37,144 nt of DNA from Eubacteriales bacterium (GCA_045633385.1 JAZQYE010000225.1:1-37144); one strand, 5' to 3'. Counted from the stretch's first letter, positions 316 to 34,800 are shown. Notes: generated by a model not told the origin, from the letters alone. Made by a program: numbers and translations.

Positions 316-344
316 TTGACAACGACCAAAAAATGTGGTAGAAT
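316..344 (+). promoter_or_regulatory. Sigma-A type promoter for the LRR lipoprotein gene
   Basis: TTGACA (316-321), 17-nt spacer, TAGAAT (339-344), with a TG extended -10 at 336-337. It lies 48 nt upstream of ATG 392. Confidence 0.6.
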
Positions 345-391
345 ACACTTGCGGGAGTCTCCGCAAATATATTTTGAAAGGAGAAATCAAA

Positions 392-13625: not shown

Positions 13626-13673
13626 TTCCGTTTCCTCCAAAGGGCGATAGATTATTTTGTATCAGCACTTATT

Positions 13674-15627: not shown

Positions 15628-15656
15628 TTGACTTTTTCCATGGAATGTATTACAAT
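15628..15656 (+). promoter_or_regulatory. Sigma-A promoter driving the riboswitch-controlled operon
   Basis: TTGACT (15628-15633), 17-nt spacer, TACAAT (15651-15656). Confidence 0.65.
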
Positions 15657-15667
15657 ATAGGAAATTG

Positions 15668-15755
15668 ATTATTTTGGCAAATCTGTCGAAAGGCAGAGAC
15701 GCAAAGCTTGGTGGCTAAGCAAAGGATATTTGTATGCTCGACCGGTTGCAAACTG
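15668..15755 (+). promoter_or_regulatory. Cyclic-di-GMP-I (GEMM-I, Rfam RF01051-type) riboswitch aptamer
   Basis: GGCAAATCTGTCGAAAGGCAGAGACGCAAAGC (15676-15707) matches the invariant GEMM-I core: GGCAAA, a hairpin capped by a GAAA tetraloop, then GACGCAAAGC. The second hairpin carries a tetraloop-receptor-like GCTAAG...TATGC. Confidence 0.85.
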
Positions 15756-15784
15756 TTTTTGTTTTGCAACCGGTCTTTTATTTT
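15740..15784 (+). terminator. Intrinsic terminator forming the riboswitch expression platform
   Basis: 13-bp perfect stem GACCGGTTGCAAA (15740-15752) / TTTGCAACCGGTC (15763-15775), 10-nt loop, then TTTTATTTT. The 5' arm overlaps the 3' strand of the aptamer. Confidence 0.85.
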
Positions 15785-15802: not shown

Positions 15803-16501
15803 TTGAACCGAGTGTATCGGGAAGAGAAAAAGTTTTTGATCAACGTTGAAGATTTCCGCAGGCACGCACATCACCTGGAGCAGGTCTTAACACAGGACGA
15901 ACACAACGGCGCATTCGGTTACCGCGTTCGGTCGCTGTATTTTGATACGATATACGATAACGATTATTTTGAAAAGCTGGACGGCGTGGAGCTGCGGCGA
16001 AAGATCCGTCTTCGTATTTACGATCCGAGCAACGACTTTGCACTGTTGGAAATGAAGCAAAAGCAGGGGCAATATCAGCTCAAGCGCTCGCTCCGAGTCA
16101 CACGCGCGGATGCCGAGGAGCTGATCATGGGCAATTACACGCCGCTTTTAAAATACCGCGAGGATTTTGCCGCCGAGTGCTACGCGTTGATGCAGTCGCA
16201 GATCTATCGCCCCAAAACGGTGGTGGAATACAACCGCAAGGCGTTTGTGGCAAAGGAGAACAAGATCCGCATCACCTTTGACAATCAGATCGTATCTACC
16301 GAGAGCGATTGGAATATTTTTGCCAAGGATCTGAACATGAACGCCGTGCTGGATCCCTTCCACGTGGTGTTGGAGGTCAAATTCAACGGCTTTTTGCTGG
16401 ATTATATCAAGGATCTTTTGGCAAGCACGCAAAAAAGCGAGCTTTCTGTCAGTAAGTATATGCTTGTACGCCAAGCATCATATAAATACAACGTATTATA
16501 A
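15803..16501 (+). CDS. VTC-domain protein (PF09359-like, polyphosphate-polymerase / CYTH-like tunnel fold)
   Basis: 232 aa with a TTG start (alternative GTG at 15812). YREEKKFLI, YRVRSLYFDT, ELRRKIRLRIYD and LEMKQKQG match the conserved basic-tunnel strands of VTC domains. No TM segment or signal peptide. Confidence 0.8.
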   Translation: MNRVYREEKKFLINVEDFRRHAHHLEQVLTQDEHNGAFGYRVRSLYFDTIYDNDYFEKLDGVELRRKIRLRIYDPSNDFALLEMKQKQGQYQLKRSLRVTRADAEELIMGNYTPLLKYREDFAAECYALMQSQIYRPKTVVEYNRKAFVAKENKIRITFDNQIVSTESDWNIFAKDLNMNAVLDPFHVVLEVKFNGFLLDYIKDLLASTQKSELSVSKYMLVRQASYKYNVL

Positions 16502-16519
16502 CAAGGAGTTTACAGTAGC

Positions 16520-17197
16520 ATGAATGACAAGATTTTAGAGCTGTTTGGGGGACAAAATAATTTGACCTGGCAGGTTATTTTGATGAATATCCTGTTTTCT
16601 GCCTTTTTGGGCGTAATCATTTACCTCTCTTATTACCTGACGCATCGCGGAACCATTTACAGCAAAAAGTTTAACGTTTCGCTGGTGGTGCTCACCGTTC
16701 TCACGGGTACGGTCATGACGGTCATCGGCAACAACCTGGCGCTCTCGCTCGGTATGGTCGGTGCGCTCTCTATCGTTCGTTTCCGTACGGCGATCAAGGA
16801 TGCGCGCGATACGATGTATATCTTTTGGGCGATCATCGTTGGTATCTGCTGCGGTGTCAGCGACTTTTTGGTATCCTCCATCGGCAGTGCCGTTGTTTTT
16901 CTCATTCTGTTTATCTTCCATTCGATCAAAAACGACAAGAGAATGCTGTTGATCATTCGTGCAAAGCGCGATCTCGGCGAGCCGATCCAAGCCGCAGTAT
17001 TCAATTTGTTTGACCGCAAGGCTGTTTTGCGCGTGCGCAACACCACACAGGATCGCGTGGAGATGATCTACGAGATCTCCTCCGAGCTGTTGCAACACGC
17101 CGAAAGAGGTAAGCACAGCGTATGCGATAAGATCTATGAGCTTGGCGAGATCGAATACGTCAACATCGTCATGCAAAACGACGAGATCTCCGGTTGA
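16520..17197 (+). CDS. DUF4956-family integral membrane protein
   Basis: 225 aa with 4-5 hydrophobic segments. GALSIVRFRTAIKDARDTMYIFWAIIVGICCG is the hallmark DUF4956 block. The soluble C-terminal tail is about 90 aa. Confidence 0.8.
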   Translation: MNDKILELFGGQNNLTWQVILMNILFSAFLGVIIYLSYYLTHRGTIYSKKFNVSLVVLTVLTGTVMTVIGNNLALSLGMVGALSIVRFRTAIKDARDTMYIFWAIIVGICCGVSDFLVSSIGSAVVFLILFIFHSIKNDKRMLLIIRAKRDLGEPIQAAVFNLFDRKAVLRVRNTTQDRVEMIYEISSELLQHAERGKHSVCDKIYELGEIEYVNIVMQNDEISG

Positions 17198-17201
17198 TTG
17201 A

Positions 17202-18689
17202 ATGAAATACCGTATTTTAGGAATTGTGATCGCGCTCTCCCTGTGTCTTTCCGTGTTTGGTGCATTTGCGTATGCACAGTATCAGCCAACGGGGAACGGG
17301 ACGCGATACCATCAGCATTTGGAGGCAGAGCAAAAGCCTGCCTGCGAGCATACCGACGGCAGCTTTTGTACGCACTTGCCCTTGATCGAGATCAATACCG
17401 AGGGTGGGGAAGAGGTGCCCGGTAAATTCTATATTGACGAAAACCAAAAGGAGCAACCGACCCTTTCCGCAAGCGGCGAAACCTACGTGATGGCAAGCGT
17501 CAATATTTTTGATAACGCCACGCAAAACAATCACCTGACCGATGCGGCAAGCGACACGGGAAGCGTGCGCATCAAGGTGCGCGGAAACTCCTCGCGCTAC
17601 CACGATAAGCTCGGATACACTCTGACCTTTGTGGATGAGGCAGGCGAAAACGAATCCCACGCCGTTATGGGCATGGACGCACACCACGAGTGGGCAATGC
17701 ACGGCCCTTTTCTGGATAAAACGCTCATTCGCAACTATATGTGGTACAACATTTCGGGCGAGCTGATGGACTATGCGCCCAACGTCCGCTTTTGCGAGGC
17801 GTTTCTCAACGGCGAATACATTGGCGTGTACGTGATGGTGGAGACCATTACGGCAGGGCAGGTGGCGGACTCGCGCCTGGATCTGTCGGTTCAAAAAAAG
17901 GATCAGACCTTTACGGGCTACTGCATTCGTATGGACCGCGGAAGCTCCGAGCTGAAGAATCTGGACACCTTTTTAAACTACACCCTGCGCAATCGGCAGA
18001 CCATTGATATCGTATATCCCGGAACCTCCAATCTCACGCCCGAGATCAAGCGTGCGATCGAGCAGGATTTTTCTCACTTTGAGCGCAACTTGTACTCCTT
18101 TGACTACGGCGACGAGACCTACGGCTACCCGAGCTTTATCGACGTTGATTCCTTTGTGGATTATTTTTTGATCAACGAGTTCACCTCAAACTACGATGCG
18201 GGCTGGCTCTCGACCTACGTTTACAAGGATATTGACGGCAAGCTTGACCTGTGCGTATGGGATTTTAACTCGGCGTGCGATAACTACAAGGACGGCGCAA
18301 TGGATCTGACCGATTTTCAAACGCATTATCAACTATGGTTCGTTATGCTGGTCAAATCTCCCGAATTTACCGAGCGGATCATCGAGCGGTACAAGGAGCT
18401 GCGCCGTACCTATTTCAGCGAGGAGTATCTCAACCGCTACATCGAACAGACCGTTGCGTATCTGGGAGATGCGGTCGAGCGCAATTTTGAAAAGTGGGGC
18501 TACACCTTTGAGGAGGGCAATGGACTGCTCGTTCCCGCAGAGCGCAACGTTCACTCCTACGAGGAGGCGTTGGAGCAGCTGCGCTCCTACATTGAGGTGC
18601 GCGGAGAATGGATGGATGCCAATATCGACAGCCTGCGCCAATACTCGAGCGAATCCAGAAACAAAAAACAAAACGAATCGAGGCGGTGA
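17202..18689 (+). CDS. CotH-family atypical kinase-fold protein (PF08757-like), secreted or membrane-anchored
   Basis: Starts 4 nt after the previous stop. N-terminal signal/anchor MKYRILGIVIALSLCLSVFGAFAYA. IKVRGNSSR, DKTLIRNYMWY, LNGEYIGVYVMVE and VWDFNSACDN match CotH family blocks. Confidence 0.85.
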   Translation: MKYRILGIVIALSLCLSVFGAFAYAQYQPTGNGTRYHQHLEAEQKPACEHTDGSFCTHLPLIEINTEGGEEVPGKFYIDENQKEQPTLSASGETYVMASVNIFDNATQNNHLTDAASDTGSVRIKVRGNSSRYHDKLGYTLTFVDEAGENESHAVMGMDAHHEWAMHGPFLDKTLIRNYMWYNISGELMDYAPNVRFCEAFLNGEYIGVYVMVETITAGQVADSRLDLSVQKKDQTFTGYCIRMDRGSSELKNLDTFLNYTLRNRQTIDIVYPGTSNLTPEIKRAIEQDFSHFERNLYSFDYGDETYGYPSFIDVDSFVDYFLINEFTSNYDAGWLSTYVYKDIDGKLDLCVWDFNSACDNYKDGAMDLTDFQTHYQLWFVMLVKSPEFTERIIERYKELRRTYFSEEYLNRYIEQTVAYLGDAVERNFEKWGYTFEEGNGLLVPAERNVHSYEEALEQLRSYIEVRGEWMDANIDSLRQYSSESRNKKQNESRR

Positions 18690-18697
18690 TCTGAGAC

Positions 18698-20866
18698 ATG
18701 AAAAAATATCTGATACTTGTCGCCGTACTGATCGCACTCGTTTTGCTCGGAGACGCGCTTTATTACCGCGTGGGACTGTATATTCCTTGCAGTACCAATG
18801 AGCCGGTCAGCGTGATCTCCAAGATCGAGGACGGGCAGATCACGCAAAAAAAGCCCGACGGCAGCTACGAGATCATTGAGATCAAGGGCGTGAATATGGG
18901 TTCGGGTGTTCCGGGCTACTGGTCCACCGAGTTCCATATTGACAAGGAGACCTATTTGCGTTGGTTTGGTATGATCCAGGATATGGGGGCAAACGTTATT
19001 CGCGTTTACACCATTTTGTCGGAGGATTTTTACAACGCCTTTTACGAGTACAACAACGGGCGTGAGGAGCCGCTGTATCTGATCCAAGGCGTTTGGGTCA
19101 ACGATTACGTGCTGAACTCGCACCACAACATTTACGACGATGCTTTTTGTGAAAACTTTTACACCCACTGCAAAACGGTGGTGGACGTGATTCACGGAGA
19201 AAAAAAGATCTATAAAAATCAATTGCACAGTGCCGGCTACGGCTCTTACCTCAACGACGTTTCGGATTGGGTGCTGGGCTATATCTGGGGCGTTGAATGG
19301 GAGGACCTGACGGTTGCCTATTCCAACGACTATTACAAGGAGCAATCCGAATACAACTCCTATGCGGGAAAGTATCTGTCTTCCTCCGAGGACGCAAACG
19401 CCTTTGAGGTCATGCTTACCATGGTGGGCGACCGCACGCTCGAGTACGAGATGAAGCGCTACCGTGAGCAACGCGTGTTTGCATTTTCCAACTGGGTGAC
19501 TACCGACCCCTTTGATTATCCCGAAGAGGTCGCACGGCAGTTTTCCAAGTGTAGCAAGGTGGATATCGAAAACATTCAATGCAGTAACGAGGTTTTGTCG
19601 GGTCAGTTTGCATCCTACCACGTTTACCCCTACTATCCCGACTATTTGAATCTGTTCAGCGACGAGGAGTGGGAAACGCTTGAGATCGGAGACCGCTCCC
19701 TGTACGCCACCGAGGACGGCAAGACCAACACCTATCTTGCCTACCTGCAATGCCTGACCAATTACCACACCGTTCCCGTGCTGATTTCTGAGTTTGGCGT
19801 TTCGACGGGTCGCGGCATTGCCCAAATCGACCCCAACACGGGCAGAAACCAGGGTAATATGTCCGAGCAGGAGCAGGGCGAGGCTTTGGTCTCCTGTTAT
19901 CAGGATATTATGAAGAGCGGCTGTATCGGCGGTTGTGCCTTTATCTGGCAGGACGAGTGGTTCAAGCGTACGTGGAATACCATGTACTCGGTCGATCTCG
20001 AACGCACGCCGTATTGGTCGGATTATCAAACAAACGAGCAATACTTCGGTCTGCTTTCCTTTGACCCCGGCGAGGAGAAAAGCGTTTGCTACGTGGACGG
20101 TGATATTTCGGAATGGACCGAGCGTGACGTTGTTGCGCAAAACGCCGACGGCAGCAGTATTTCGATGAAGTACGATGAAAGATTCGTATATCTGATGGTG
20201 AAAAAGAGCGGATTTTCGATCGATAACGACAAGCTCTATATCCCCATTGACACCACGCAAAAGTCGGGAAGCAACTATGCCGCAGGCGAGAACGTTAAAT
20301 TTGATCGCGCCGCCGACTTTTTGCTGGTGCTGGACGGAAAAGAGAACTCGCGCTTGCTGGTGCAGGAGCGTTATGAAGCACTGCGCGCCAACTATTCCAA
20401 AGAGGTGTACGGCTTTAACACCTATTACGAGGGCAACGTTCCCGCCGCAGATTCGCCGCAATTTCGCGAGATCTATCTTGTTTTGCAGCTGGAGTCGGAG
20501 GAGGGAACCGAAAACAGCAAATTCCATACGGGTCTTTTGACCTACGGAAATGCAAATCCCGTTTCGGACGAGTTTAATTCGCTTGCCGATTTTTGCGCAG
20601 GTGACGGCTACGTTGAGATCAAGCTCCCGTGGCAGCTGCTCAACTTTATGGATCCTTCCCGTATGATGATCCATGACGATTACTACGAGCACTACGGTTT
20701 GGAGGCAATTGCAATCGACCGTATTTATCTTGGTCTTGGCGACGGTACGGAATCGCGTATCGAAATGAAAGACACCAAATTGAAGGCGTGGGATAACAAG
20801 GTAACCTCCCACGAGCGCCTCAAGGCGTCTTATTACATCTTACAAGCCTTTTGGAAAGAGGACTAA
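18698..20866 (+). CDS. Membrane-anchored extracytoplasmic (beta/alpha)8 glycoside-hydrolase-like protein (clan GH-A-like motifs)
   Basis: 722 aa. N-terminal TM anchor LILVAVLIALVLLG. IKGVNMG, MGANVIRVYTI, CSNEV...SYHVYPYYP and LISEFGVS follow the order of GH-A strand-end motifs (NE acid/base, H-x-Y, E nucleophile). The family was not identified. Confidence 0.7.
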   Translation: MKKYLILVAVLIALVLLGDALYYRVGLYIPCSTNEPVSVISKIEDGQITQKKPDGSYEIIEIKGVNMGSGVPGYWSTEFHIDKETYLRWFGMIQDMGANVIRVYTILSEDFYNAFYEYNNGREEPLYLIQGVWVNDYVLNSHHNIYDDAFCENFYTHCKTVVDVIHGEKKIYKNQLHSAGYGSYLNDVSDWVLGYIWGVEWEDLTVAYSNDYYKEQSEYNSYAGKYLSSSEDANAFEVMLTMVGDRTLEYEMKRYREQRVFAFSNWVTTDPFDYPEEVARQFSKCSKVDIENIQCSNEVLSGQFASYHVYPYYPDYLNLFSDEEWETLEIGDRSLYATEDGKTNTYLAYLQCLTNYHTVPVLISEFGVSTGRGIAQIDPNTGRNQGNMSEQEQGEALVSCYQDIMKSGCIGGCAFIWQDEWFKRTWNTMYSVDLERTPYWSDYQTNEQYFGLLSFDPGEEKSVCYVDGDISEWTERDVVAQNADGSSISMKYDERFVYLMVKKSGFSIDNDKLYIPIDTTQKSGSNYAAGENVKFDRAADFLLVLDGKENSRLLVQERYEALRANYSKEVYGFNTYYEGNVPAADSPQFREIYLVLQLESEEGTENSKFHTGLLTYGNANPVSDEFNSLADFCAGDGYVEIKLPWQLLNFMDPSRMMIHDDYYEHYGLEAIAIDRIYLGLGDGTESRIEMKDTKLKAWDNKVTSHERLKASYYILQAFWKED

Positions 20867-20891: not shown

Positions 20892-22157
20892 ATGATTGAA
20901 ACACTGCTATGGATCTATATTGCGGTCTGTTTGTCGCTGATTTTTTTTCAATGCCTGTTTATTGCAATCATCGCGCTCCGTTCCTATTTTGACCGTCGCG
21001 TGATAGAGCGCAGGTATCGGGAGATCGTCGGTCAGCTTGAGCGGATCTCCCTCAACCAGCCCGTTGCCGACGAGCATCAAAGCTTTTTGAAAAAAGAGCT
21101 CTTTCTTACCCCTTCGCTCTATTGCTACGAAAAGGCGTTGCGTCGGGTGTTTGACGAGATTGAAAACGGTACGCTTGCTTTGCGCGACCCGAACGAGATC
21201 ACAAACGTGATCATCGATATTCGTCACCGTGCCAAAAAAGGGGACGAGAGATCCAGAGGACACTCTAAGATCCGCATGAAGCTGCGCCCCAAAAAGTCGC
21301 TGATCCAACCGCTTGCCAAGGAGCTTGCGGAGCGCTATTTGGGTGAATATGTTCGCCAAACCGCCCCTGCCATCGTTTCTTTGACCGCATCCTATCGCAA
21401 AAAGGACAATATCGTTCACCTGTTTTACATATTCATGCTCAAAAAGTACGGCTATTTACGCCATTGCTACACGTCTGAGCTGGTTGCAAATTTGCGCGAT
21501 TTGTTAGACGACGGCGATTCGGTTTGCGCCGAGGGAATCCTGTTGGCAGTGTATCAGATCGGAGATCCCCACATTACGCTGGACGTTTTACGGCAGGTCG
21601 ATCAAATAGACCGATTCCTGCACCCCAAAATCGTCAGTGACGGATTGCTTTCGTTTGCGGGCGATGCGCTGTCTTGGCAAAAGCTGATGCTGGAGCACTT
21701 GCACGAGTTTTCGGAAACGATGCAGGTCAATCTGCTCAACTACCTGCGCTTTGCGTCGGGTGACCACTGCGAGCGCGTTTTGCAGATGCTTCAAAACGAA
21801 GAGACTTATGACGAGGTGCGTTTTTCCTGCATTCGTTATTTCGGCAAATATCCCTATGAGCCCGCTTACGATCTGCTTGCCGCGTTTGCCGCAGGCATTC
21901 CCGAACAGCGCATCGAATACGCTATCGTTGCGCTTGCCGTTCTCCGACGCTACCCGCGTCAGCGAACGATCGATATTTTGCGTGCACAAATCGGCAGCTT
22001 CAATTGGTTCGTTCGTTACAACGCGACCGAAAGTCTGGAGACCCTTGGCATCGAATATCAGGATCTGGTCGATATTTTTGACGGTAAGGATCGCTTTGCA
22101 AGAGATATGCTGCAATATCAATTCGACCAAAGATATATTCTTGACGGGGAGGTTTGA
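20892..22157 (+). CDS. Membrane-anchored hypothetical protein with HEAT/PBS-lyase-like repeats (tentative)
   Basis: RBS AAAGGAG. N-terminal TM LLWIYIAVCLSLIFFQCLFIAIIAL. Helical-repeat character, e.g. NWFVRYNATESLETLG resembles the VRxxAAxALG HEAT-like unit. Confidence 0.7.
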   Translation: MIETLLWIYIAVCLSLIFFQCLFIAIIALRSYFDRRVIERRYREIVGQLERISLNQPVADEHQSFLKKELFLTPSLYCYEKALRRVFDEIENGTLALRDPNEITNVIIDIRHRAKKGDERSRGHSKIRMKLRPKKSLIQPLAKELAERYLGEYVRQTAPAIVSLTASYRKKDNIVHLFYIFMLKKYGYLRHCYTSELVANLRDLLDDGDSVCAEGILLAVYQIGDPHITLDVLRQVDQIDRFLHPKIVSDGLLSFAGDALSWQKLMLEHLHEFSETMQVNLLNYLRFASGDHCERVLQMLQNEETYDEVRFSCIRYFGKYPYEPAYDLLAAFAAGIPEQRIEYAIVALAVLRRYPRQRTIDILRAQIGSFNWFVRYNATESLETLGIEYQDLVDIFDGKDRFARDMLQYQFDQRYILDGEV

Positions 22158-22159
22158 GA

Positions 22160-23575
22160 GTGAAATACGATTTTATCAACGCCGTGGCGGAATTTTTAAA
22201 GGGTATTACGGTTGGCTACGGTACGTATCTTGTTCTTTATTCCACCTTTCTGTTCGTTGCGGTCATCGTAGGTGCGCTGGTTCTGTATTACCGTAATAAG
22301 CGCATGCGGTACCAGAACGTAGTGGAGAATGAGTATCAGATCCCCATTACCATCGTCGTTCCCGCTTATAACGAGGAGGTCACGGTCGTAGAGACGGTAA
22401 AGTCTCTTTTGACGCTTGAGTATCGCTCCTACGAGATCATCGTTGTGGACGATGGCTCCAAGGATAATACCTCGGGCGTTTTGCGCGAGGCATTCGATAT
22501 GCACCCCGTGCGCCGACCGATCCGCAAGCAGATACCCTGTAAGGACGTTGACACGATTTACGAGTGCTTTACCGAAAAGGTTCCGCTCGTGCTGGTCAGA
22601 AAGATCAACGGCGGAAAGGCAGACGCCTTGAATATGGGAATCAACGCCTCCAGATTTCCGTACTTTATTTGTATGGACGCCGACTCCGTTTTGCAGGCAG
22701 ATTCCTTAATTCGCATTACCCGTCCCGTAATCGAAAACGACGATATCGTTGCCGTTGGCGGCGTGGTACGTCCCTGTAACGACGTCGAATTGGAGGGCGG
22801 ACGCGTCAAGCACTATCAGCTCCCCAAAAACCTGGTGGCTTGTATGCAGGTCGTGGAGTACGACCGCTCGTTTTTGGCTACCCGTATCCTCTTTGACCAA
22901 TTCAACGGCTCTCTCATTATTTCGGGCGCGTTTGGATTGTTCAAAAAAGAAGCCGTCATTGCCGTGGGTGGCTACGACAGCAAAACGATGGGTGAGGATA
23001 TGGAGCTTGTAGTCGATCTTCACAAATACTGTACGGCAAACAAAAAGCCCTACGCGATCAAGTATGCAACCGATGCGGTTTGCTGGACGCAAGCTCCCGA
23101 ACGCTTAAAGGACCTTTGTAAGCAACGCAAGCGTTGGCATCTCGGACTTTTTCAAACGCTGATGAAGCATCGCTCCATGGCAACCGATTTCAAAAGCGGC
23201 CCCGTCAGCTTTATTTCCTATGCGTATTTCTTTATTTACGAGTTTTTGTCACCCTTTATCGAGTTTTTCGGCTTGATCGTTACGTTCTTATCTCTTGTTG
23301 CCAAGCTGATCAACTTTAAATTCTTTTTGATGTTTACCGCAATTTACGCATTGTTTGGCGCGGCACTGACGCTGACCTCGTTTTTTGCGCGAACACAGAC
23401 CTCCGAGATCAAGCTGACCGTGCGCGACGTTGCAAAAGCGGCTTTGATGTGTTTGCTGGAGATCGTTTTTATGCACAACGTTATGACGTACGTGCGCGCC
23501 ACCGCCTTTATCGGCTACCGTAAAAAGAAGCTGCAATGGGGACGGATCGAGCGAAAGAAAATCAACTTAAAGTAA
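22160..23575 (+). CDS. Processive family-2 glycosyltransferase (IcaA/PgaC/BcsA-like polysaccharide synthase)
   Basis: ORF track 22154..23575 (TTG). GTG 22160 is preferred (GGGGAGG 7 nt upstream). VVDDGSKDNT, CMDADS, GEDMEL and QRKRW (23123-23137) form the D,D,D,QxxRW signature. N-terminal TM plus about four C-terminal TM segments; no PilZ domain. Confidence 0.88.
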   Translation: MKYDFINAVAEFLKGITVGYGTYLVLYSTFLFVAVIVGALVLYYRNKRMRYQNVVENEYQIPITIVVPAYNEEVTVVETVKSLLTLEYRSYEIIVVDDGSKDNTSGVLREAFDMHPVRRPIRKQIPCKDVDTIYECFTEKVPLVLVRKINGGKADALNMGINASRFPYFICMDADSVLQADSLIRITRPVIENDDIVAVGGVVRPCNDVELEGGRVKHYQLPKNLVACMQVVEYDRSFLATRILFDQFNGSLIISGAFGLFKKEAVIAVGGYDSKTMGEDMELVVDLHKYCTANKKPYAIKYATDAVCWTQAPERLKDLCKQRKRWHLGLFQTLMKHRSMATDFKSGPVSFISYAYFFIYEFLSPFIEFFGLIVTFLSLVAKLINFKFFLMFTAIYALFGAALTLTSFFARTQTSEIKLTVRDVAKAALMCLLEIVFMHNVMTYVRATAFIGYRKKKLQWGRIERKKINLK

Positions 23576-23587
23576 GGAGGAGAGACC

Positions 23588-26500
23588 ATGCAAAACAAAC
23601 GGCTTTTATGGCTTATGCCGATGATGATCGTCCTGCTGATCTCCATGCTTACGGTTACGGCGGGTGCCGCGGTTTCCTTTTCCGAGGAGAACCGAGGCGA
23701 CAGTCAAAGCGTGTTTATTGCGGGCAACCCCGACCTGTATCCCATCGAATACTTCAACCCCAATACCAAACGCTACGAGGGCGTAATGCCGATTTTGTTC
23801 GAGCGTATTTCCGAGGAGTGCGGACTTGATTTTACCTACATCTACGCATCTGCCGAAAACAAGCAGCAGTATCTGGCGCAAAACGGGCAGGTAGATATCG
23901 TATCCGCGTACGTCAACGATCGCATCGATACGCAGTACGTTCCGCAGGAGAGTGCGTTGCTTCACTTTACCTATAACGGGCGCACCCAAACGGCAGTCAT
24001 TGGCTTTACGTCGGTTTGTGACCAAACGGTAAAAGAGAAGATCAGTACGTATCTGGAGGCGTTGAGCGAGGAGGAGCTGACGGCAATTACCGTTTCCTAC
24101 GTTATGACGCACCAAAGAGAGAGCGCCAAAAACGCATGGATCTTGCCAACCGTTATCGCGGTGATATTGGTCGCGCTTGTCGTTTTGGGCTTGCTGTTCT
24201 ACCGCAATCAAAAGAGGACGGTGGAGCAAAAAAAAATCAACCCCAAAAGCGGACTGTACAACAAGAGCTATCTGGACGTTATTTTGTATTCCTTGATCCA
24301 CGATTTCGTCCGCAAGCGCTATTATGCGGTTTACGTCTCCGCAAATTATGAAAACCTGCTCAAATACTACACCAAGCCCCAATTGGTCGCGCTGTCGGAT
24401 TATATATCGCGCACCTTGCAGGCTGAATTGCAGGATCGCGAGTTTGGCATTCACGTAGGTGAAGACGTTACCTTTTTGCTGTTGATACAAGCCCCCAATC
24501 AGGGGCAGGCAGAGCAAAGGGTTGACGCGCTGATTCAAAGGCTGAACCTTGAAAACGAGATCTTGAGCGACGATTATCGCGTAACGATCTCGGCAGGCTG
24601 TTACGGACTTTCGCAGGCACGCGAGAGCGGCGAACGCATTCTCGACGTAACGAGCGAGGCATATCTTTACGCCGAGGAAAACGCGCTTCGGTACTTCTTT
24701 ATCGACCCTGTATTCCTGAAGCGGGTGGATCGTAAGGCGCTTTTGCAAAAGGAGACCGTTCAAGCGATCAAAAAGGATCAGATCCTGTTCTATCTGCAAT
24801 ATATTGTGGATATTCAAAGAAACGTCATCATCGGTGCAGAGTCGCTCTCCCGTTGGGAGCACCCGCGTGAGGGACTGCTGTTCCCGGGGGCTTACATACA
24901 GCTGATGCAGCACGCAAACAACATTCATTTGTTGGATTTTTACATGCTTGAAAAAAGCTGTCAACAGCTTGCACGCTGGAACACGGACGAAGCGAACGGC
25001 TTGAAGATCTCCTGCAACTTTGACCGACAAACCGTTGCACGGGAAGATTTTTACGACCGTGTCATGGAGATCACCGAAAAATACGGCGTCGATCGCAGTC
25101 GCCTCGTTTTGGAGATCACCGAGGATACCTTTGTTTACAACAAAGAAAACGTGATGCAAAACACGGGCAGACTGCGTAAGGAAGGCTTTAACATAGCCCT
25201 TGACGATTTTGGCAGGGGAAGCTCTTATTTCCAGAATCTGATCGAGTATCACGTCTCCCTTCTCAAGCTGGATCGCATCTTCGTTGCCATGATGAAGACC
25301 GCGCCCGGCGAAACGCTCATCCGCGGAATCGTAACGGCGGCGCACGATCTTGGACTCCACGTACTGCAAGAGGGCGTAGAGACCTACGCAGAGCTGCAAA
25401 CGTGCAAGGCGTTTGGCATTGATATGGTGCAGGGCTTTGTGTTCTCCCGCGTCATTCCCGGCATCGAGGGCGATCGCGTCAGACGCCGTTTGGCTGCTCG
25501 TCTGTTGGAGGAGGGCGCACCCCAAAACAGCTTGCAGACCTATGCCGACGTCAACCCCGACGCCGAGGAGGATAACGTTTACGAGGACGATGACGAGGAG
25601 GGAAGCGCTTACGGTACGCGCTACCGTTGGAGCTTTTTGGCTCGTTTGCACCGCGCTCCCGAGGAGATCGCCGGTTACTATTCGGAGCTGAAGAACGCAT
25701 TTTTGAAATACAAAAAGGTTCGTTCCCGTATCAGCTGGAGCTACGATACCGTCAGCTATCGCCACGCACCTGCGGCAAAATTCGTCATGCGTCAAAAATC
25801 CTTGTTGCTCTATCTTGCTCTGCCGCCCGCAGAATTTGAGGAAAGCAAGTATTTCTTTGTAGATGCATCCGAAAAGAAGAAATACGAGCAGGTTCCGCTT
25901 CGCTTAAAGATTCGCGGCAGCCGCGGCTTTAAGCACGCCTTGGAGCTGATCGAGGAGCTTGCCAAGCGGCTGGAATGGAAGGAACAGACCGATTTTACCG
26001 CACAGGATCACACCTTGCCGTTCAAAACGGTAGAGGAGCTGATCGAGGTAAAGCTGATCAAAATAAACGGCAAGGCACTTGCCGTAGAGGAGCTTCCCGC
26101 ACCGCAAAAGGTGCAAAGCAACATTTCTTATCAAGCACCGAATTTTTCAATTGTAGAGCCTGTTAAAGAGGAAACATCAATGGAGGAAAATACCATGGAA
26201 AACAATTCGACCATTACGCAAAATATTGCGGACTTTATTTACGGTACCTATTACCGTTGGAGCTTTACCGCACGCCTGCACCAAGCGCCCGAAAACGTTG
26301 CCGAGTATTACAACGATATCAAAAATGCCTTTTTGCGCTACAAAAAGGTCAAGTCGCGCATCAGCTGGAGCTGTGATACCATTACGTTTGGCAAGGAGCA
26401 GCTTGCAAAATTCGTGCTGACGCAAAAAACGCTGTACGTATATCTGGCACTCTCTCCCAAGGACTTGGAGGGAACCAAGTACTTCTTTACCGACGAGTCG

Positions 26501-27214
26501 GATATCAAAAAGTACGAAAAGGTTCCGGTTCGCGTGCGCGTTCGCAGTGAGCGCGGTGTGAAGTACACCATCGAGCTGATCGAAAAGATCGCCGCTCTCA
26601 AGGATCTGCAGCTTGCAAAGAACTTTGAGGTCACCGATTTCACGCTCCCGCACGAAAACGTTGAAACGCTGTTGGATCGTCAATTGATCAAAAAGATCGA
26701 TTTGATCGAATCCGTCGTGGTCTCCGAGGAGGAGAGCGAGGAGGAGAGCGTAGCGGCTGCTGCCGTTTTGGAGGAGGCACCCGTTGAGGAAGCACCTGCC
26801 GAGGAGCCGGTCGTTGAGGAAGCACCCGTCGAGGAAGCACCCGTCGAGGAGCCGGTCGTTGAGGAGGCACCCGTCGAGGAAACGCCTGTAGAGGAGCCGG
26901 TCGTTGAGGAGCCCGTTGTGGAAGAAACTCCCGTTCAGGAGCCCCCCGTTGAAGAGCCGGTACAGGAAGAGCCCAAAGCAGAAGAGACCGTTCCTGCGCA
27001 AGCAACGTTCACCGTGGTTGAGGAAACGCCCGCAGAGCAGATTCAAAACGCGGATCTTGCCGAGGCTGAGACCATTCACGTTGCCTTCCTGCAAAAGCTT
27101 TGCCAGCAGTTTGACGCCGACGAATTAAACGCGCACGTCAAGGTGATCTACAAAAAGAAGAGAGAAAAGAAGACGAGTATCTTCGACATCATCATGAAGA
27201 AGAACCGCTCTTGA
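23588..27214 (+). CDS. Multidomain c-di-GMP signalling protein: SBP-like ectodomain, TM, degenerate GGDEF, EAL, two copies of an unassigned module, acidic EExPV repeats
   Basis: RBS AAGGAGGAG. Signal/TM followed by IAGNPDLYPIEYF (type-3 solute-binding-like) and a TM at aa 184-205. The GGDEF position reads VGEDV (24455-24469). The EAL domain has ESLSR (24839-24847), CNF, EITE, DDFGRGSS, KLD, EGVET and QGF all present. Confidence 0.9.
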   Translation: MQNKRLLWLMPMMIVLLISMLTVTAGAAVSFSEENRGDSQSVFIAGNPDLYPIEYFNPNTKRYEGVMPILFERISEECGLDFTYIYASAENKQQYLAQNGQVDIVSAYVNDRIDTQYVPQESALLHFTYNGRTQTAVIGFTSVCDQTVKEKISTYLEALSEEELTAITVSYVMTHQRESAKNAWILPTVIAVILVALVVLGLLFYRNQKRTVEQKKINPKSGLYNKSYLDVILYSLIHDFVRKRYYAVYVSANYENLLKYYTKPQLVALSDYISRTLQAELQDREFGIHVGEDVTFLLLIQAPNQGQAEQRVDALIQRLNLENEILSDDYRVTISAGCYGLSQARESGERILDVTSEAYLYAEENALRYFFIDPVFLKRVDRKALLQKETVQAIKKDQILFYLQYIVDIQRNVIIGAESLSRWEHPREGLLFPGAYIQLMQHANNIHLLDFYMLEKSCQQLARWNTDEANGLKISCNFDRQTVAREDFYDRVMEITEKYGVDRSRLVLEITEDTFVYNKENVMQNTGRLRKEGFNIALDDFGRGSSYFQNLIEYHVSLLKLDRIFVAMMKTAPGETLIRGIVTAAHDLGLHVLQEGVETYAELQTCKAFGIDMVQGFVFSRVIPGIEGDRVRRRLAARLLEEGAPQNSLQTYADVNPDAEEDNVYEDDDEEGSAYGTRYRWSFLARLHRAPEEIAGYYSELKNAFLKYKKVRSRISWSYDTVSYRHAPAAKFVMRQKSLLLYLALPPAEFEESKYFFVDASEKKKYEQVPLRLKIRGSRGFKHALELIEELAKRLEWKEQTDFTAQDHTLPFKTVEELIEVKLIKINGKALAVEELPAPQKVQSNISYQAPNFSIVEPVKEETSMEENTMENNSTITQNIADFIYGTYYRWSFTARLHQAPENVAEYYNDIKNAFLRYKKVKSRISWSCDTITFGKEQLAKFVLTQKTLYVYLALSPKDLEGTKYFFTDESDIKKYEKVPVRVRVRSERGVKYTIELIEKIAALKDLQLAKNFEVTDFTLPHENVETLLDRQLIKKIDLIESVVVSEEESEEESVAAAAVLEEAPVEEAPAEEPVVEEAPVEEAPVEEPVVEEAPVEETPVEEPVVEEPVVEETPVQEPPVEEPVQEEPKAEETVPAQATFTVVEETPAEQIQNADLAEAETIHVAFLQKLCQQFDADELNAHVKVIYKKKREKKTSIFDIIMKKNRS
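25610..26695 (+). repeat. Intragenic tandem duplication with a 630-nt (210-aa) period
   Basis: Copy 1 starts at 25610 (YGTRYRWSFLARLHRAPEE...KNAFLKYKKVRSRISWSYDT). Copy 2 starts at 26240 (YGTYYRWSFTARLHQAPEN...KNAFLRYKKVKSRISWSCDT). About half the residues are identical across roughly 150 aa, and synonymous sites have diverged. Confidence 0.85.
26771..26986 (+). repeat. 15-nt tandem repeat encoding about 14 EE(A/T/P)PV pentapeptides
   Basis: GAGGAAGCACCCGTC / GAGGAGCCGGTCGTT units in frame: EEAPV EEAPA EEPVV EEAPV EEAPV EEPVV EEAPV EETPV EEPVV EEPVV EETPV QEPPV EEPVQ EEPKA. Confidence 0.9.
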
Positions 27215-27262: not shown

Positions 27263-28525
27263 TTGAAAAAGCATTTATTATTGATTGTAATTTGTTTTGC
27301 ATTGTTACTGACATCATTTGGTTGTACGGCCGATTCCACAGAAACCGAGAGCACGCAAACGCCTTCGCAAACTACCAAAGATCCTTCGTTGCAGGAGACG
27401 ACCGATCCCTCCGTTGATCAAGAGCCGACCGCCAAAGCCATTTGGCAGGACGCCAATAACGTCGTTCTTCTTTGGAGCAACGAGGCAAATCACGAGTACA
27501 GCATCTACCGAAGCAACAGCCCCGAGGGGAGCTTTGCGTATCTCGGCAAGAGCTTGACGGGCTCTTACCGCGATGCCACGGCAACCTATCCAAACGCGTA
27601 CTACTACAAAATAAAAGACAAAGATCTTAAAACACAGCAGGTACGGGAGCTTGAGCCGATCGGCGCGGTCGTTGCGCCCGAGGAGGTGGACTCTGTCAGC
27701 GTGATCATGTATCACAATTTTGTCAGCCAAGAGGATATCGAAAACGGCATTGAGTTTGAGGAATATTCCATCTCTCCCGCCGATTTTGAAGCGGATCTGA
27801 TCTGGCTGAAGGAAAACGGCTACGTTACCATCACGTCAAGAGAGCTGTTGTATTATCTGGAGAACAAAGAGCCCATTCCGCAAAAGGCGGTCATTCTGTC
27901 TATCGATGACGGCTCGTGGGGCGTATATACCAACGCTTGGCCGCTCTTGAAAAAGCACGGCATGAAGGCGGATTTCAACGTCATCGGCGCGCAGATCGAT
28001 GCTACGTGGGAGCTGCTTCATTCTGGCGGAACGCGAGAGGGCGAGCCCGCACCTTTTTGCACGTGGGAGGAGCTGATCGAAATGCAGCAAAGCGGAGAGA
28101 TTAACGTATGCTCCCATACCTACGGTATGCACGTGTATAACAAAGAAAAGCGCGTGGGCATGAGCATGATGGAAAACGAGACCCCCGAGGCGTTTGCACA
28201 AGCCGTTCAAAAGGACTACAATCTGGTTTTGAGCTGCATGGAGGGCTGGACGGGCATTATGACCGAAACGGTGGCTTATCCCTACTCCAAGAGGAGCGCG
28301 ACGGGTGACCGTATCGTTTTGGAAAACACGGGGTACAAAATTTTGATGGCGGGAAACGGCGCCAGAGGCACGGCAGGGAACTACTTTGTCAGGGGCTGTG
28401 ATTTTGTCAATCAGCTCACGCTCATGAGCCGCCCGTGCCGAATGGACGGAACCCCCATCAGCGTCTATCTTGAAAACATTCAAGTAAGGGATGCAAAAAA
28501 CGGAGTCAACGTTTCGAATGCGTAG
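27263..28525 (+). CDS. Polysaccharide deacetylase (CE4, IcaB/PgaB-like) lipoprotein with an N-terminal FN3-like module
   Basis: TTG start. MKKHLLLIVICFALLLTSFGC lipoprotein signal. VIMYHNF, SIDDGSWG (TFDDG-type motif) and CSHTYGMH (H-S/T-x-x-H motif). Confidence 0.85.
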   Translation: MKKHLLLIVICFALLLTSFGCTADSTETESTQTPSQTTKDPSLQETTDPSVDQEPTAKAIWQDANNVVLLWSNEANHEYSIYRSNSPEGSFAYLGKSLTGSYRDATATYPNAYYYKIKDKDLKTQQVRELEPIGAVVAPEEVDSVSVIMYHNFVSQEDIENGIEFEEYSISPADFEADLIWLKENGYVTITSRELLYYLENKEPIPQKAVILSIDDGSWGVYTNAWPLLKKHGMKADFNVIGAQIDATWELLHSGGTREGEPAPFCTWEELIEMQQSGEINVCSHTYGMHVYNKEKRVGMSMMENETPEAFAQAVQKDYNLVLSCMEGWTGIMTETVAYPYSKRSATGDRIVLENTGYKILMAGNGARGTAGNYFVRGCDFVNQLTLMSRPCRMDGTPISVYLENIQVRDAKNGVNVSNA

Positions 28526-28764: not shown

Positions 28765-28793
28765 TTGACATTTCAGGTATATTGTGCTATAAT
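28765..28793 (+). promoter_or_regulatory. Consensus sigma-A promoter of the giant surface-protein gene
   Basis: TTGACA (28765-28770), 17-nt spacer ending TGTGC, TATAAT (28788-28793). Confidence 0.7.
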
Positions 28794-31800: not shown

Positions 31801-34800
31801 TCGGCTGTCAGTACAGTGATATTCGTCTGTCGGGCGGAACGCTGGTCGAGTCCGAGGTCTTTATGGACTTGAACTTTACCCAGCCCATCGAAATTCCCGA
31901 AAACGTCACCTTAGAGCAACACGCGTTCGTGCGCTGCACGGGTGAGATCATCTTTTTGGCGTATGCTCCCGAGGTGCCCAAGGCATACGAGGGTGAGACA
32001 GAGGCGGAGCAGGCAGACCGCGAGGCAAAGCAAGCGGAGCTTGACCAATATATTGCAACCTACACCTCCGTGCTGCAGGATTGCAACGGCTTGACCATTT
32101 ATGCGTATGCAAATTTGGGCGAGCTTTGGCAGGGTGCAGGCTCCGGCTTTGCCCCCAACTATAACCAGATCAAGGATAGTGGTACCTGCGGCGACGCAAG
32201 ATACGTCCTGATCAAAACCATTGATCGATATTATAACAAGGCGCTTGGCGTTTTGCTTTGCTACGGCGACGGCACACTCGGCTCCTTTGATCCCAAGGGA
32301 AAGAATTCCTACCACGATTACACCACCGACCAATTGGGCGTTAGTATCAAAGAGGCGATCGTCAGCAACGGCATCGACGTCATTGGTGCAAATTCGTTCG
32401 TCAATTTTGGTATGATTACGTCCCTGCGTTTGGGTAAGGACGTGCAAAAAATTGAGGCAGGTGCCATTTACGGCAACATTCAGCTTGCAAGTATCTTCTT
32501 TGAGGGCGACTGTCCCTTGATCGACAAGCACGCGTTTACGAGCGACCCGAGCAAGAGCCAGGGCAATGACTCCCATTTGAAGATCGCATACGATAAGGAT
32601 TCGCACGGCTGGAGCTATAACGGCAAGGCTTATCAGTCCTTTATCCACGGCGAGGGTCTTTCGGTCAAGGAGTACGTGGACGGCACGACCTATCTGGTCA
32701 CCACCGATATGGATCTGACGCCGATCGACCGTAACAACACCGACCGCTACGGTATCATTTACGAGATCCAATACAACCCCCACAGACCCGAGGAGGCTGT
32801 ATCGGCTATCGTCAGCGGCTACAACCCCGTTACTAGCACCGAGAAGGATATCGTCATTCCGTTGCGCATTCTGAGCGGTACCGATCCGCTCCCCGTTATC
32901 GGAATCAAGGAGTCTGCCTTTGGTGCGGGAATCAGCAAAACAGAGCTTGAGACCATTACCATCCAAACGCAAAACATCGAAAGCATTGGCTCCAAGGCGT
33001 TTACCAAGTGCGAGGCACAAATTTATTTTGTTGGCGATAACGTCAAAGTGGTTGATGATAAAGAGGTTCCCAAAATAGAGGTTGCCGCCGATGCGTTTGA
33101 CCAAGGCTCTTACATTGTGGTCAACCAGAGCGCTAAGGGCTGGGGCAGTACGCTTCAAAGCGCTACGGTCTACCAATCTGCCGTTCTGACGGGAACGCAG
33201 GATCAAAACGGCGTTTATTACACCGTCGATCTGCAAAACAACACGGCGATCGTAGGTAAAAAGTCCTCGCAAAGCGACGAGGAAAGCTCGGTCAACACCA
33301 GCAACGCGACCCTGCGTAACGTCGTCATTCCCGCATTCGTTACCTACAACGACCGCCTTTACATGGTAGTCGGCTTTGACCGCTACGCATTTTACGGCAA
33401 CAAGAACGTAGAAAGCATTACGTTCAGCCGCTTTGTAGGTGAGGGACAGAGCGAGGCAGTTCCCGCAATTTGGGATTGCACCTTCCGCGATACCGATCAC
33501 CTCAAGAGCATTACGGTAGATGGAACCAACCTGCGCAACTACGTTGCCGTTGACGGCGTTTTGTACGGCAACGCGCTGGAGGCAGAGGGCGAAAATCTTG
33601 TCTTTACCCGACTGATCAAGTATCCCGAGGCAAAGGCGCCTGCAAACGGCGTTGTCAACCTTCCTTCCGATGCGACCTACAATATTACGGTCATTGAAAC
33701 CTACGCCTTTGCAGGAAACGAGAATATCAAGACCGTAAACCTTGCTTCGGTCAACGTTATCGGTTCTCACGCATTCTGGAACTGCACCGCCCTGACCACG
33801 CTGAGCGGCAATTATCAGATCCACGACGTGGGCGACTCCGCGTTTGAAAACACGGCGCTCACCAAATTCCAATTCTCCGATACGCTTGCCACCATCGGCA
33901 CGCGCGCCTTCTACGACTCCAAGCTTTCGGGCGTGCAGGAGATCAACCACAACGTCATTTCGATCGGTGACGGCGCGTTTGGAAGATGTACCGATATTTC
34001 GGGCTTTGTATTCCGCGATTACGGTGCAGGCGAATCGGTGCGTTACCTGACCCAAAGCATTACGGGCAACTACCGCGTTGACCTGCAAGGCGAGGGCAAC
34101 GTTTACGGCGTACTGTTTGATTTCAGCAATGCGCACCTGCCCGTTTTGTTGCAGTATGCAATCACGTTTAAGCAAGGGGAAAACGAGTCTATCGTTTACG
34201 ATATGAGCGATGGCACGCATCTGGTTCCTTACCAGATCGCGTCCGAGGCATTCTGGGGCTCCCGTTACCTCAAGGAAGTGATCCTGCACGACGATACCAA
34301 GCTGGTTGGCAGCCAGGCGTTTGCCGACTGTGCAAAATTGGAGTACGTCAAGTTTGGTGCAGGCTACTACGGCAGCAGCACCGACCCCGTCTCCGGTATT
34401 TACAGCTACAACCTCTTTATCGATAGCTCCGCGCTCGATTACATCGAGGTATCTAAGGATAACCCGTACTTCTGCAACGATAGCAACGGCGTATTGTATT
34501 CCAAGGATCTTTCCGTCCTTTACTGCTATCCCGCAGGTATTCAACGCGTCAGCTACAACGTTCCCGCATCTGTTACAAAGATCTACGATTCCGCCTTTTA
34601 CGGCAACACCAACGTCAAGCAGATCGTTGTGGGCACTACACAGCACATCTACATCGGTTCCCGTGCGTTTGGTAACTGTACCAATTTGAATACGGTTTAC
34701 TACGTGTGCGAAACCGTTCCCACCGTGGGTGAAAAGATCTACGATAACACCCCCGATACGCTTTACACGCGCTTTAAGTCGAGCTTTGCACAAGAGGGCT

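Follow-up and report, generated by a model that had tools for sequence, protein, structure and literature searches.

A degenerate-GGDEF/EAL membrane protein encoded directly after the synthase gene of a riboswitch-led polysaccharide operon in uncultured Eubacteriales: a possible c-di-GMP feedback brake

Membrane-bound phosphodiesterases serving a single exopolysaccharide machine reportedly include PdeK (YhjK) of Escherichia coli and HmsP of Yersinia pestis, both of which are said to consist of an extracytoplasmic sensor, a transmembrane (TM) segment, a degenerate GGDEF domain and an EAL domain. Each reportedly acts on one synthase-dependent polysaccharide, PdeK on phosphoethanolamine (pEtN)-cellulose and HmsP on the Hms polymer resembling poly-N-acetylglucosamine (PNAG); pdeK is said to lie beside the bcs genes, and HmsP to work with a dedicated cyclase, HmsT. 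These enzymes are the nearest characterised functional analogues of the protein considered here, which is encoded by the seventh of eight tightly packed genes of an operon located in a 37,144-nt stretch of DNA (hereafter, the window; GCA_045633385.1, JAZQYE010000225.1) from an uncultured Eubacteriales lineage represented by a metagenome-assembled genome. Unlike PdeK and HmsP, the window protein (hereafter, the EAL protein) lacks HAMP and GAPES domains, exposes one lobe of a solute-binding protein (SBP)-like fold, and carries two C-terminal modules and a conserved C-terminal peptide; moreover, a riboswitch precedes the operon that contains its gene, and the lineage is Gram-positive. HmsP is among its best NCBIfam matches (135.5 bits vs. 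an equivalog cut-off of 733), but the protein scores far below every NCBIfam equivalog cut-off and is an equivalog of no named enzyme. It also resembles LapD and FimX, where a degenerate GGDEF domain is likewise in tandem with an EAL domain serving as the binding site for cyclic di-GMP (c-di-GMP). In contrast to these receptors, the window protein retains its catalytic residues and has neither a HAMP domain nor a LapG-binding periplasmic domain; the NCBIfam LapD model scores 70.6 bits (cut-off 1020).

The genes preceding the EAL gene have a described counterpart as well. In necrotic-enteritis strains of Clostridium perfringens, the locus NELoc-2 comprises genes for VTC, DUF4956 (annotated as “tubulin/FtsZ”) and CotH (497 aa) proteins, followed by those for a hypothetical protein of 685 aa, a HEAT-repeat protein of 377 aa and a family-2 glycosyltransferase (GT2) of 466 aa annotated as “chitin synthase” (Lepp et al. 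2010, PMC2879425, Table 4). The order VTC-DUF4956-CotH-~700 aa-HEAT-GT2 and the protein sizes match those in the window. However, NELoc-2 as described ends at the synthase, with no EAL protein, deacetylase, riboswitch or adjacent diguanylate cyclase reported, and it differs further by a resolvase and a duplicated VTC-DUF4956 pair (PMC2879425). Gram-positive Pel loci also carry cotH, polyphosphate polymerase and DUF4956 accessory genes, to which a gene for a dual diguanylate cyclase/phosphodiesterase is added in bifidobacteria; PelD, a receptor with a degenerate GGDEF domain, provides their c-di-GMP input (Whitfield et al. 2020, PMC7112168). The same trio stands beside synthase-dependent exopolysaccharide genes in the window, but there the synthase is a PgaC/IcaA-like GT2 instead of PelF/PelG, pelDEA is lacking, and the protein concerned with c-di-GMP is of the EAL type and has no I-site.

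Two further comparisons concern the synthase and the control region. The window synthase and deacetylase are related to the enzymes of PNAG systems (PgaABCD/IcaADBC), but by sequence they are not equivalogs: the synthase scores 152.6 bits with TIGR03937 (PgaC_IcaA; cut-off 422.3), and the deacetylase 110.8 bits with TIGR03938 (cut-off 321.9). No match to the PgaD/IcaD family was found among the eight operon products, small unlisted open reading frames (ORFs) not having been specifically sought, and no PilZ domain was matched among these products by Pfam or NCBIfam models. As to the control region, GEMM (c-di-GMP-I) riboswitches are associated with genes for both the production and the degradation of c-di-GMP (PMC7266159). 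The window EAL gene does not directly follow the aptamer but comes seventh in a polysaccharide operon.

The best explanation of the whole, to which we would give about an even chance, is that the EAL protein constitutes an inner-membrane c-di-GMP module dedicated to the synthase encoded upstream and acting as a feedback brake. In such a circuit, c-di-GMP produced, e.g., by the adjacent dCache-GGDEF cyclase would stabilize the aptamer, prevent termination and turn the polysaccharide operon on. The EAL protein, co-produced with the synthase and inserted in the same membrane, would bind c-di-GMP there and probably hydrolyse it to pGpG, thus operating as a local sink or a “trigger-type” phosphodiesterase. 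Local removal of c-di-GMP would then curb not only synthase activation but also any additional read-through at the riboswitch, which amounts to negative feedback. The one-lobe ectodomain could modulate the protein from outside the cell, while the two basic modules and the conserved peptide at its C-terminus probably dock it to a partner or a polyanion. Negative feedback is of a broadly known kind and plausible at this locus.

The ON direction, on which the loop depends, is suggested by the leader of the operon. Its c-di-GMP-I aptamer, the only aptamer found, matches Rfam RF01051 in full length (model positions 1–87; 72.6 bits vs. a gathering score of 35, E = 1.6e-12). The terminator is a perfect 13-bp hairpin with the arms GACCGGTTGCAAA (15740–15752) and TTTGCAACCGGTC (15763–15775) followed by the T-run TTTTATTTT. 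Since its 5′ arm includes the 3′ strand of the aptamer helix P3, with nucleotides 15740–15753 common to both, aptamer and terminator are mutually exclusive, and hence ligand binding should prevent termination. Both the minimum-free-energy and the centroid folds, computed ligand-free, form the terminator hairpin. This is the architecture of an ON-switch, a direction we infer from the mutual exclusivity. The arrangement is found in four loci: the window and the related loci L003, L005 and L008, in which the orthologous aptamers score 66.6–73 bits, the −35 TTGAC and the −10 hexamer of the promoter are kept, and the terminator stem is conserved with variable loops, described here as covarying. A preliminary description of this DNA placed the operon under riboswitch control; the aptamer, its overlap with the terminator and the tight packing of eight same-strand genes (gaps of 18, 4, 8, 25, −4, 12 and 48 nt) support this for the window, whereas two syntenic loci, L001 and L009, proved to lack the riboswitch in the Rfam search.

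In the Vc2 riboswitch, G20, A47 and C92 are the ligand-contacting nucleotides (PMC5888326). In the window RNA, the GC pair of GGCAAA is preceded by a G, the adenines of ACGCAAAGC are present, and a GC follows ACCGGUU. According to our own reconstruction of the numbering, these bases presumably correspond to G20, A47 and C92, the last falling in the 5′ arm of the terminator. In the aptamers of L003 (2083–2170), L005 (2211–2297) and L008 (2050–2137), the window G is replaced by A, 5′ of the GC in (G/A)GCAAA; by the same reconstruction this is the G20 site, where a G-to-A change is associated with altered c-di-GMP/cyclic GMP-AMP (cGAMP) selectivity in GEMM-I RNAs, so the preference for the one or the other ligand may differ between the aptamers of these relatives. 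A second c-di-GMP-I aptamer is present in L005 (14615–14703, minus strand; 59.4 bits), where it immediately precedes a PAS-GGDEF-EAL gene adjoining the operon, a separate instance in this lineage of a c-di-GMP turnover gene under a riboswitch; other GGDEF/EAL genes adjoin L005 and L017. The leader of L001, the closest relative with a long contig, contains at 1977–2082 a long near-perfect palindrome, gttacaaatgtgttacaaa ... tttgtaacacatttgtaac, which is possibly a protein operator replacing the RNA switch. A degenerate riboswitch was considered there and rejected: a permissive Rfam search returned only microRNA-like matches caused by the palindrome. Another Rfam match, to the enterobacterial Hfq-binding small RNA STnc490, appeared at L003:17446–17564 (59.2 bits vs. 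a gathering score of 56); on a Clostridia contig, it probably arose by chance or from composition.

The capability of removing the inducer is predicted from the EAL domain, which Pfam recognizes with E = 1.6e-54 (185.2 bits vs. a cut-off of 31.3). The catalytic motifs reported initially were all recovered: E418 in ESL (ESLSR, with R422), N477 in CNF, E509/E512 in EITE, D539/D540 in DDFGRG, K560 and D562 in KLD, E595/E598 in EGVET, and Q615 in QGF. The RocR-based criterion of Seshasayee et al. comprises seven catalytic positions (E175, N233, E265, E268, D295, K316, E352) and four recognition positions (Q161, R179, D296, D318) (PMC2952852). The window protein retains the equivalents of all seven (E418, N477, E509, E512, D539, K560, E595) and all four (Q404, R422, D540, D562), the residue offset to RocR chain 3sy8 being consistent. 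By sequence criteria, the domain is catalytically complete, and the window protein may be inferred to hydrolyse c-di-GMP. The best solved relatives of the domain, i.e., MorA, DosP, MucR, RocR and PdeL, are active phosphodiesterases. Some 50 protein clusters make up the family of the protein; they come from uncultured Eubacteriales/Clostridia, for the most part in gut metagenomes. Their C-termini take three forms: two modules and a tail in proteins of ~1150–1250 aa, a single divergent module in those of ~785–815 aa, and a short end of another kind in those of ~744 aa. The full catalytic and recognition set is present in 44 of the 51 family members, the window protein among them; Q404, R422 and D562 are invariant in alignment A1, and D540 is changed to N or H in the ~744-aa clade.

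The GGDEF-fold domain between the membrane and the EAL domain has, by contrast with the window's own cyclase and other canonical GGDEF domains, lost its functional residues. The signature is replaced by VGEDV (aa 290–294, nt 24455–24469), the coordinates given for it initially being correct and its place at the GG(D/E)EF position confirmed by alignments to MorA and 5m3c and by profile–profile comparison. The Pfam GGDEF match (PF00990) is sub-threshold, 15.4 bits vs. 23.8. In the hhalign comparison of a region profile built from 45 family members with a canonical GGDEF profile, the set for the latter including the window cyclase, the match reached a probability of 96.6% (E = 5.5e-10, 155 columns), so the fold has been kept. 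Still, the DxD/FK.VND segment has another residue in place of its metal-binding Asp and is shortened by a deletion of three residues, the guanine-binding Asn and Asp are both lost, and the acidic pair of GG(D/E)EF has given way to hydrophobic or small residues. Upstream of VGEDV the protein reads LQDREFGIHVGED, with R-E-F-G at the position where RxxD would mark an I-site receptor such as PelD, YdaK or PssE; the sole RxxD of the whole protein is at aa 350, and none of the 51 family members has RxxD at the I-site position. The loss of the GGDEF functional residues holds in 51 of 51.

With signature, GTP-binding residues and RxxD all gone, cyclase activity and canonical I-site binding are unlikely, as had been anticipated from the sequence, and the same applies to GTP-dependent allostery. 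A GTP-activated EAL enzyme, as PdeA (CC3396) reportedly is, was considered but seems unlikely, the fold having lost its GTP-binding residues; for this reason the hydrolysis assay with and without GTP suggested earlier is probably moot. We regard the domain as a structural adaptor that is attached to the TM helix without an intervening HAMP linker.

The dedication to the synthase is suggested by synteny. Wherever the flanking sequence suffices, the EAL gene comes immediately after that of the GT2 synthase, within the same cassette, and syntenic EAL proteins are as little as about 35–40% identical to that of the window. The order VTC-DUF4956-CotH-~720aa-HEAT-GT2-EAL is displayed by L001, L003, L005/6, L008 and L009, and the order CotH-...-GT2-EAL by L015–L018; the contigs of the ~744-aa clade (L007, L015–L018) end before the VTC gene and hence come without a leader. 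The riboswitch is present in the window, L003, L005/6 and L008, and the deacetylase gene in the window and L001 only. A dCache cyclase gene adjoins four loci (window, L001, L003, L008). In the window, a motif scan of this cyclase revealed an intact RIGGDEF and no RxxD I-site, so it is without the usual product inhibition; the in-operon phosphodiesterase could supply the negative control missing from it.

The protein itself turned out to be longer than initially described. From the ATG at 23588, preceded at 7 nt by a ribosome-binding site (AAGGAGGAG) graded as strong, the frame is stop-free to 27214 and encodes 1208 aa; the preliminary description had the same start but stopped at 25560, covering the first 657 residues only and overlooking the C-terminal half. 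Instead of the single TM segment described, two hydrophobic segments were found, aa 4–33 (signal peptide or anchor) and aa 179–208. None follows aa 208, so the remainder of the protein, tail modules included, should be cytoplasmic.

The missed C-terminal region of ~550 aa consists of two basic modules, acidic linkers and a conserved tail. According to phmmer, aa 674–832 and aa 884–1040 are two copies of one module, with strongly acidic linkers between; the Pfam match “Extensin_1” in the acidic linker is compositional and below threshold. The module gave no usable Pfam or PDB sequence match, nor did NCBIfam, run with the whole protein only, return one. Its AlphaFold2 (AF2) model (predicted local distance difference test score, pLDDT, 89.8) is an alpha/beta sandwich with weak Foldseek similarity to YjbR (2fki, E = 0.014) and YdhG/DUF1801, no match attaining E ≤ 0.001. 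The module is accordingly assigned to none of the known c-di-GMP-binding folds such as PilZ or MshEN. A profile search of 1.84 billion representative proteins retrieved the module in 3,478 clusters at 50% identity, usually as 2–7 tandem copies per protein. Giant Firmicute surface proteins (Flg_new, MBG, beta-helix) likewise carry it in their cytoplasmic tails: the extracellular repeats are succeeded by TM segments, and these by an acidic linker and three modules, with a uL15-like domain closing some of the proteins; other hosts are cytoplasmic DUF2357 proteins and small stand-alone proteins encoded next to RNase J genes. The module thus represents a large family, ~3,500 clusters, without a Pfam model or a close solved structure. 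Nowhere are the long-form proteins better conserved than in their final 58 residues, which end in IHVAFLQKLCQQFDADELNAHVKVIYKKKREKKTSIFDIIMKKNRS, are near-identical at ~42% overall identity, and on their 110-aa acidic linker look like a tethered docking peptide. Two other ideas about this region were discarded: that the peptide is a truncated uL15-like domain (ruled out by hhalign, probability 0.2%), and that CotH phosphorylates the basic tail, since CotH bears a signal/anchor whereas the tail is cytoplasmic.

At the other end of the protein, the ectodomain is, as modelled, a one-lobe or “half” family-3 SBP fold. The AF2 model of aa 28–184 (pLDDT 82) finds its best Foldseek matches in the Thermotoga arginine-binding protein TmArgBP (lobe 1 in isolation) and in domain A of LAO (E = 3.7e-5, TM-score 0.58–0.64 normalised by target length); full-length binding proteins align over only ~90 columns. 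The Pfam SBP_bac_3 match (PF00497) is below threshold (15.6 vs. 26.4 bits) and restricted to profile positions 3–64. Thus, the SBP-like fold reported ahead of the TM segment was recovered, but with ~155 aa it makes up a single lobe, not a full two-lobed Venus-flytrap protein. A search of PDB sequences with the ectodomain profile gave a sole match, to a designed kelch repeat protein, rejected as spurious. One arginine lies near the position of Arg77 of LAO, which we take to be the carboxylate-binding residue there; an amino-acid ligand for the ectodomain is not implied.

Several observations weigh against a feedback brake. Loop 6 of the window protein reads DFGRGSSY, and those of relatives DFGSGYAS or DFGNGFSS, vs. 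the canonical DFG(T/A)GYSS, which in the work of Rao/Liang and Römling reportedly goes with constitutively active EAL domains; with its atypical loop, the enzyme could be silent or need activation. The E512 equivalent is lost in 7 of the 51 family members, six of which lack the D540 equivalent too: P0046–P0051, the ~744-aa proteins, combine E512A with D540N/H and a disrupted loop 6, and P0040 has E512M. It is in these members, and not in the window protein, that the LapD/FimX-type loss of catalytic residues is seen. Nevertheless, the catalytically degenerate ~744-aa clade keeps its EAL gene directly after the synthase gene, an argument against hydrolysis being what holds the gene there. The riboswitch lies ~7.8 kb upstream of the EAL gene, and consensus scans leave room for internal promoters or partial terminators within this distance; since L001 and L009 do without it, a feedback loop cannot be a constant feature of these operons. 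The gating by an extracellular ligand proposed initially is weakened, resting as it does on a single-lobe SBP-like domain, and the arginine near the LAO position is not conserved in the family. Finally, the six-gene core recurs in C. perfringens NELoc-2, where no EAL gene accompanies it (PMC2879425). Because some relatives are devoid of the riboswitch and one clade of the catalytic residues, the gene is more likely held beside the synthase gene by c-di-GMP binding or partnering than by feedback as such, which lends real weight to a receptor and also to a combined reading as a trigger phosphodiesterase. The family-wide role is therefore more likely synthase association plus c-di-GMP binding, with hydrolysis and riboswitch control frequent but dispensable, and at this level the alternative already named in the preliminary description, i.e., the EAL domain as a local c-di-GMP receptor or partner of the synthase, is favoured by the synteny of the ~744-aa clade. 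Taken to the limit, it would mean that the EAL domain binds c-di-GMP without appreciable turnover, like LapD, FimX and YkuI, and activates or assembles the HEAT/GT2 complex, providing a post-translational input to the synthase as a second layer above the riboswitch and not a brake. The fixed position of the gene even in the clade with a wrecked loop 6, the atypical loop of the window protein, the docking-like peptide on its long acidic tether, and the lack of any PgaD/IcaD-like partner or PilZ match, which would otherwise leave the synthase without a c-di-GMP input, all speak for it. Yet without selection for catalysis one would hardly expect 44 of 51 members to retain every catalytic residue, the nearest relatives of known structure are enzymatically active, and NELoc-2 works, or at least persists, with no EAL protein at all; a receptor or scaffold only is, in our judgement, somewhat unlikely.

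The feedback brake has also to be compared with readings in which the tie to the synthase or to the riboswitch is absent. GGDEF-EAL phosphodiesterases are abundant in Clostridia, other GGDEF/EAL genes stand beside L005 and L017, and C. difficile has been suggested to buffer raised c-di-GMP by modestly raised expression of several phosphodiesterase genes (McKee et al., PMC6200980). The EAL protein might accordingly be an ordinary phosphodiesterase working on the global c-di-GMP pool and hitch-hiking in the operon, but its strict order after the synthase down to about 35% identity, across three C-terminal architectures, is unexpected for a passenger and makes this decidedly unlikely. Even an active phosphodiesterase would close no loop if an internal promoter or attenuation in the 7.8 kb uncoupled its gene from the riboswitch. 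The consensus scan did show a terminator-like hairpin at 16836–16863 and promoter-like sites at 21381 and 22893 inside the operon, and the relatives lacking the riboswitch have the same gene set under some other control region; these internal sites are, however, weak and near chance (23 promoter-like sites vs. 16.5 ± 4.1 expected, 31 terminator-like sites vs. 20.9 ± 4.5), and the spacers between the genes offer no room for regulatory regions, so uncoupling appears very improbable. A further possibility, which we consider quite unlikely, is that the protein senses c-di-GMP in order to organise a synthase complex of a novel type and is not mainly a brake: the EAL domain would read c-di-GMP, with hydrolysis only resetting it, and the tail modules and the C-terminal peptide would link the HEAT/GT2 synthase to some partner or polyanion in the cytoplasm, a candidate polyanion being polyphosphate from the co-encoded VTC/DUF4956 pair. 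If true, the tail module, shared as it is with the giant surface proteins, would define a general, so far unrecognised system for anchoring or localising membrane proteins.

Should the feedback brake hold, uncultured gut Clostridia would possess a compact, self-contained c-di-GMP circuit made up of a sensor cyclase, an RNA switch for a polysaccharide operon and an in-operon EAL protein removing the inducer. It would also provide a regulatory context for the CotH/VTC/DUF4956/HEAT/GT2 cassette, known only as NELoc-2, of unknown function, and, as far as the trio is concerned, as a Pel accessory set. The connection of a c-di-GMP circuit with an NELoc-2-type cassette was unexpected, as was the overlooked C-terminal half. 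Since the family includes natural variants that possess or lack the riboswitch, and that possess or lack the catalytic residues, the choice between phosphodiesterase and receptor is directly testable.

The features of the locus are collected in Table 1. The stop codon of gene 5 overlaps the start of the synthase gene (22154–22157), and the synthase has hydrophobic segments at both termini. The product of gene 4 has no Pfam or NCBIfam match; it weakly matches a glycoside hydrolase family 2 (GH2) catalytic-domain chain (E = 2.8e-4) and is possibly glycoside-hydrolase-like. Downstream of the operon, the consensus scan placed a 12/12 promoter for the next transcription unit at 28765.

Table 1. Features of the window, in order of position (aa, amino acid residues of the EAL protein where it or one of its parts is listed, otherwise of the product named)
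Feature	Positions	Strand	Basis
Adjacent diguanylate cyclase gene, dCache_1-HAMP-GGDEF, 524 aa	14006..15580	+	Pfam GGDEF E = 7.1e-26, dCache_1, HAMP
Sigma-70-type promoter TTGACT-17-TACAAT	15628..15656	+	Consensus scan, 10/12 matches
c-di-GMP-I (GEMM-I) aptamer	15666..15753	+	Rfam RF01051
Intrinsic terminator, putative expression platform	15740..15784	+	Sequence and computed folds
Gene 1, cytoplasmic VTC-domain protein (polyphosphate-polymerase-like)	15803..16501	+	Pfam VTC E = 7.1e-41; no hydrophobic segment
Gene 2, polytopic DUF4956 membrane protein	16520..17197	+	Pfam DUF4956 E = 7.3e-13; several hydrophobic segments
Gene 3, CotH-family kinase-like protein, N-terminal signal/anchor	17202..18689	+	Pfam CotH E = 3.2e-58; hydrophobic aa 1–27
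Gene 4, 722-aa secreted or anchored protein	18698..20866	+	Hydrophobic aa 1–29
Gene 5, membrane-anchored HEAT-repeat protein	20892..22157	+	Pfam HEAT_2 E = 3.1e-8
Gene 6, family-2 processive glycosyltransferase, PgaC/IcaA-like synthase	22154..23575	+	Pfam Glycos_transf_2, Glyco_tranf_2_3
Gene 7, 1208-aa degenerate-GGDEF/EAL membrane protein	23588..27214	+	ORF and domain analysis
Ectodomain, single-lobe family-3 SBP-like fold, aa 28–182	23669..24133	+	AF2 model and Foldseek
Degenerate GGDEF-fold domain, aa 212–368	24221..24691	+	hhalign
EAL domain, aa 391–621	24758..25450	+	Pfam PF00563, complete catalytic and recognition set
Tail module 1, aa 674–832, basic (net +10), without Pfam model	25607..26083	+	phmmer internal repeat; AF2 model, pLDDT 89.8
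Tail module 2, aa 884–1040, basic (net +6)	26237..26707	+	Internal repeat
Acidic Glu/Pro/Val-rich low-complexity linker, aa 1041–1150, net −38	26708..27037	+	Composition
Conserved C-terminal tail, aa 1151–1208	27038..27211	+	Alignment
Gene 8, secreted/lipoprotein-like polysaccharide deacetylase, PgaB/IcaB-like, carbohydrate esterase family 4 (CE4)	27263..28525	+	Pfam Polysacc_deac_1 E = 9.7e-14; hydrophobic aa 1–26

The trio leading the operon (15803–18689) combines a cytoplasmic VTC protein, a polytopic DUF4956 protein and a signal-bearing CotH protein. This topology suggests that polyphosphate is made inside the cell and passed outward, and that the extracellular kinase could modify the polymer or the wall. 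Beside the locus, a LytS-type histidine kinase (His_kinase and HATPase_c) and a response regulator are encoded both in the window (10993–13640, minus strand) and in L003 (14769–17389); the pair is a possible additional regulator of the region. Elsewhere in the window, two ORFs, one of 1425 aa (31911–36188, minus strand) and one of 739 aa (4036–6255, plus strand), have no Pfam match at E ≤ 1e-5, and surface proteins with BspA-type leucine-rich repeats are encoded at 335–3349 and 9393–10856.

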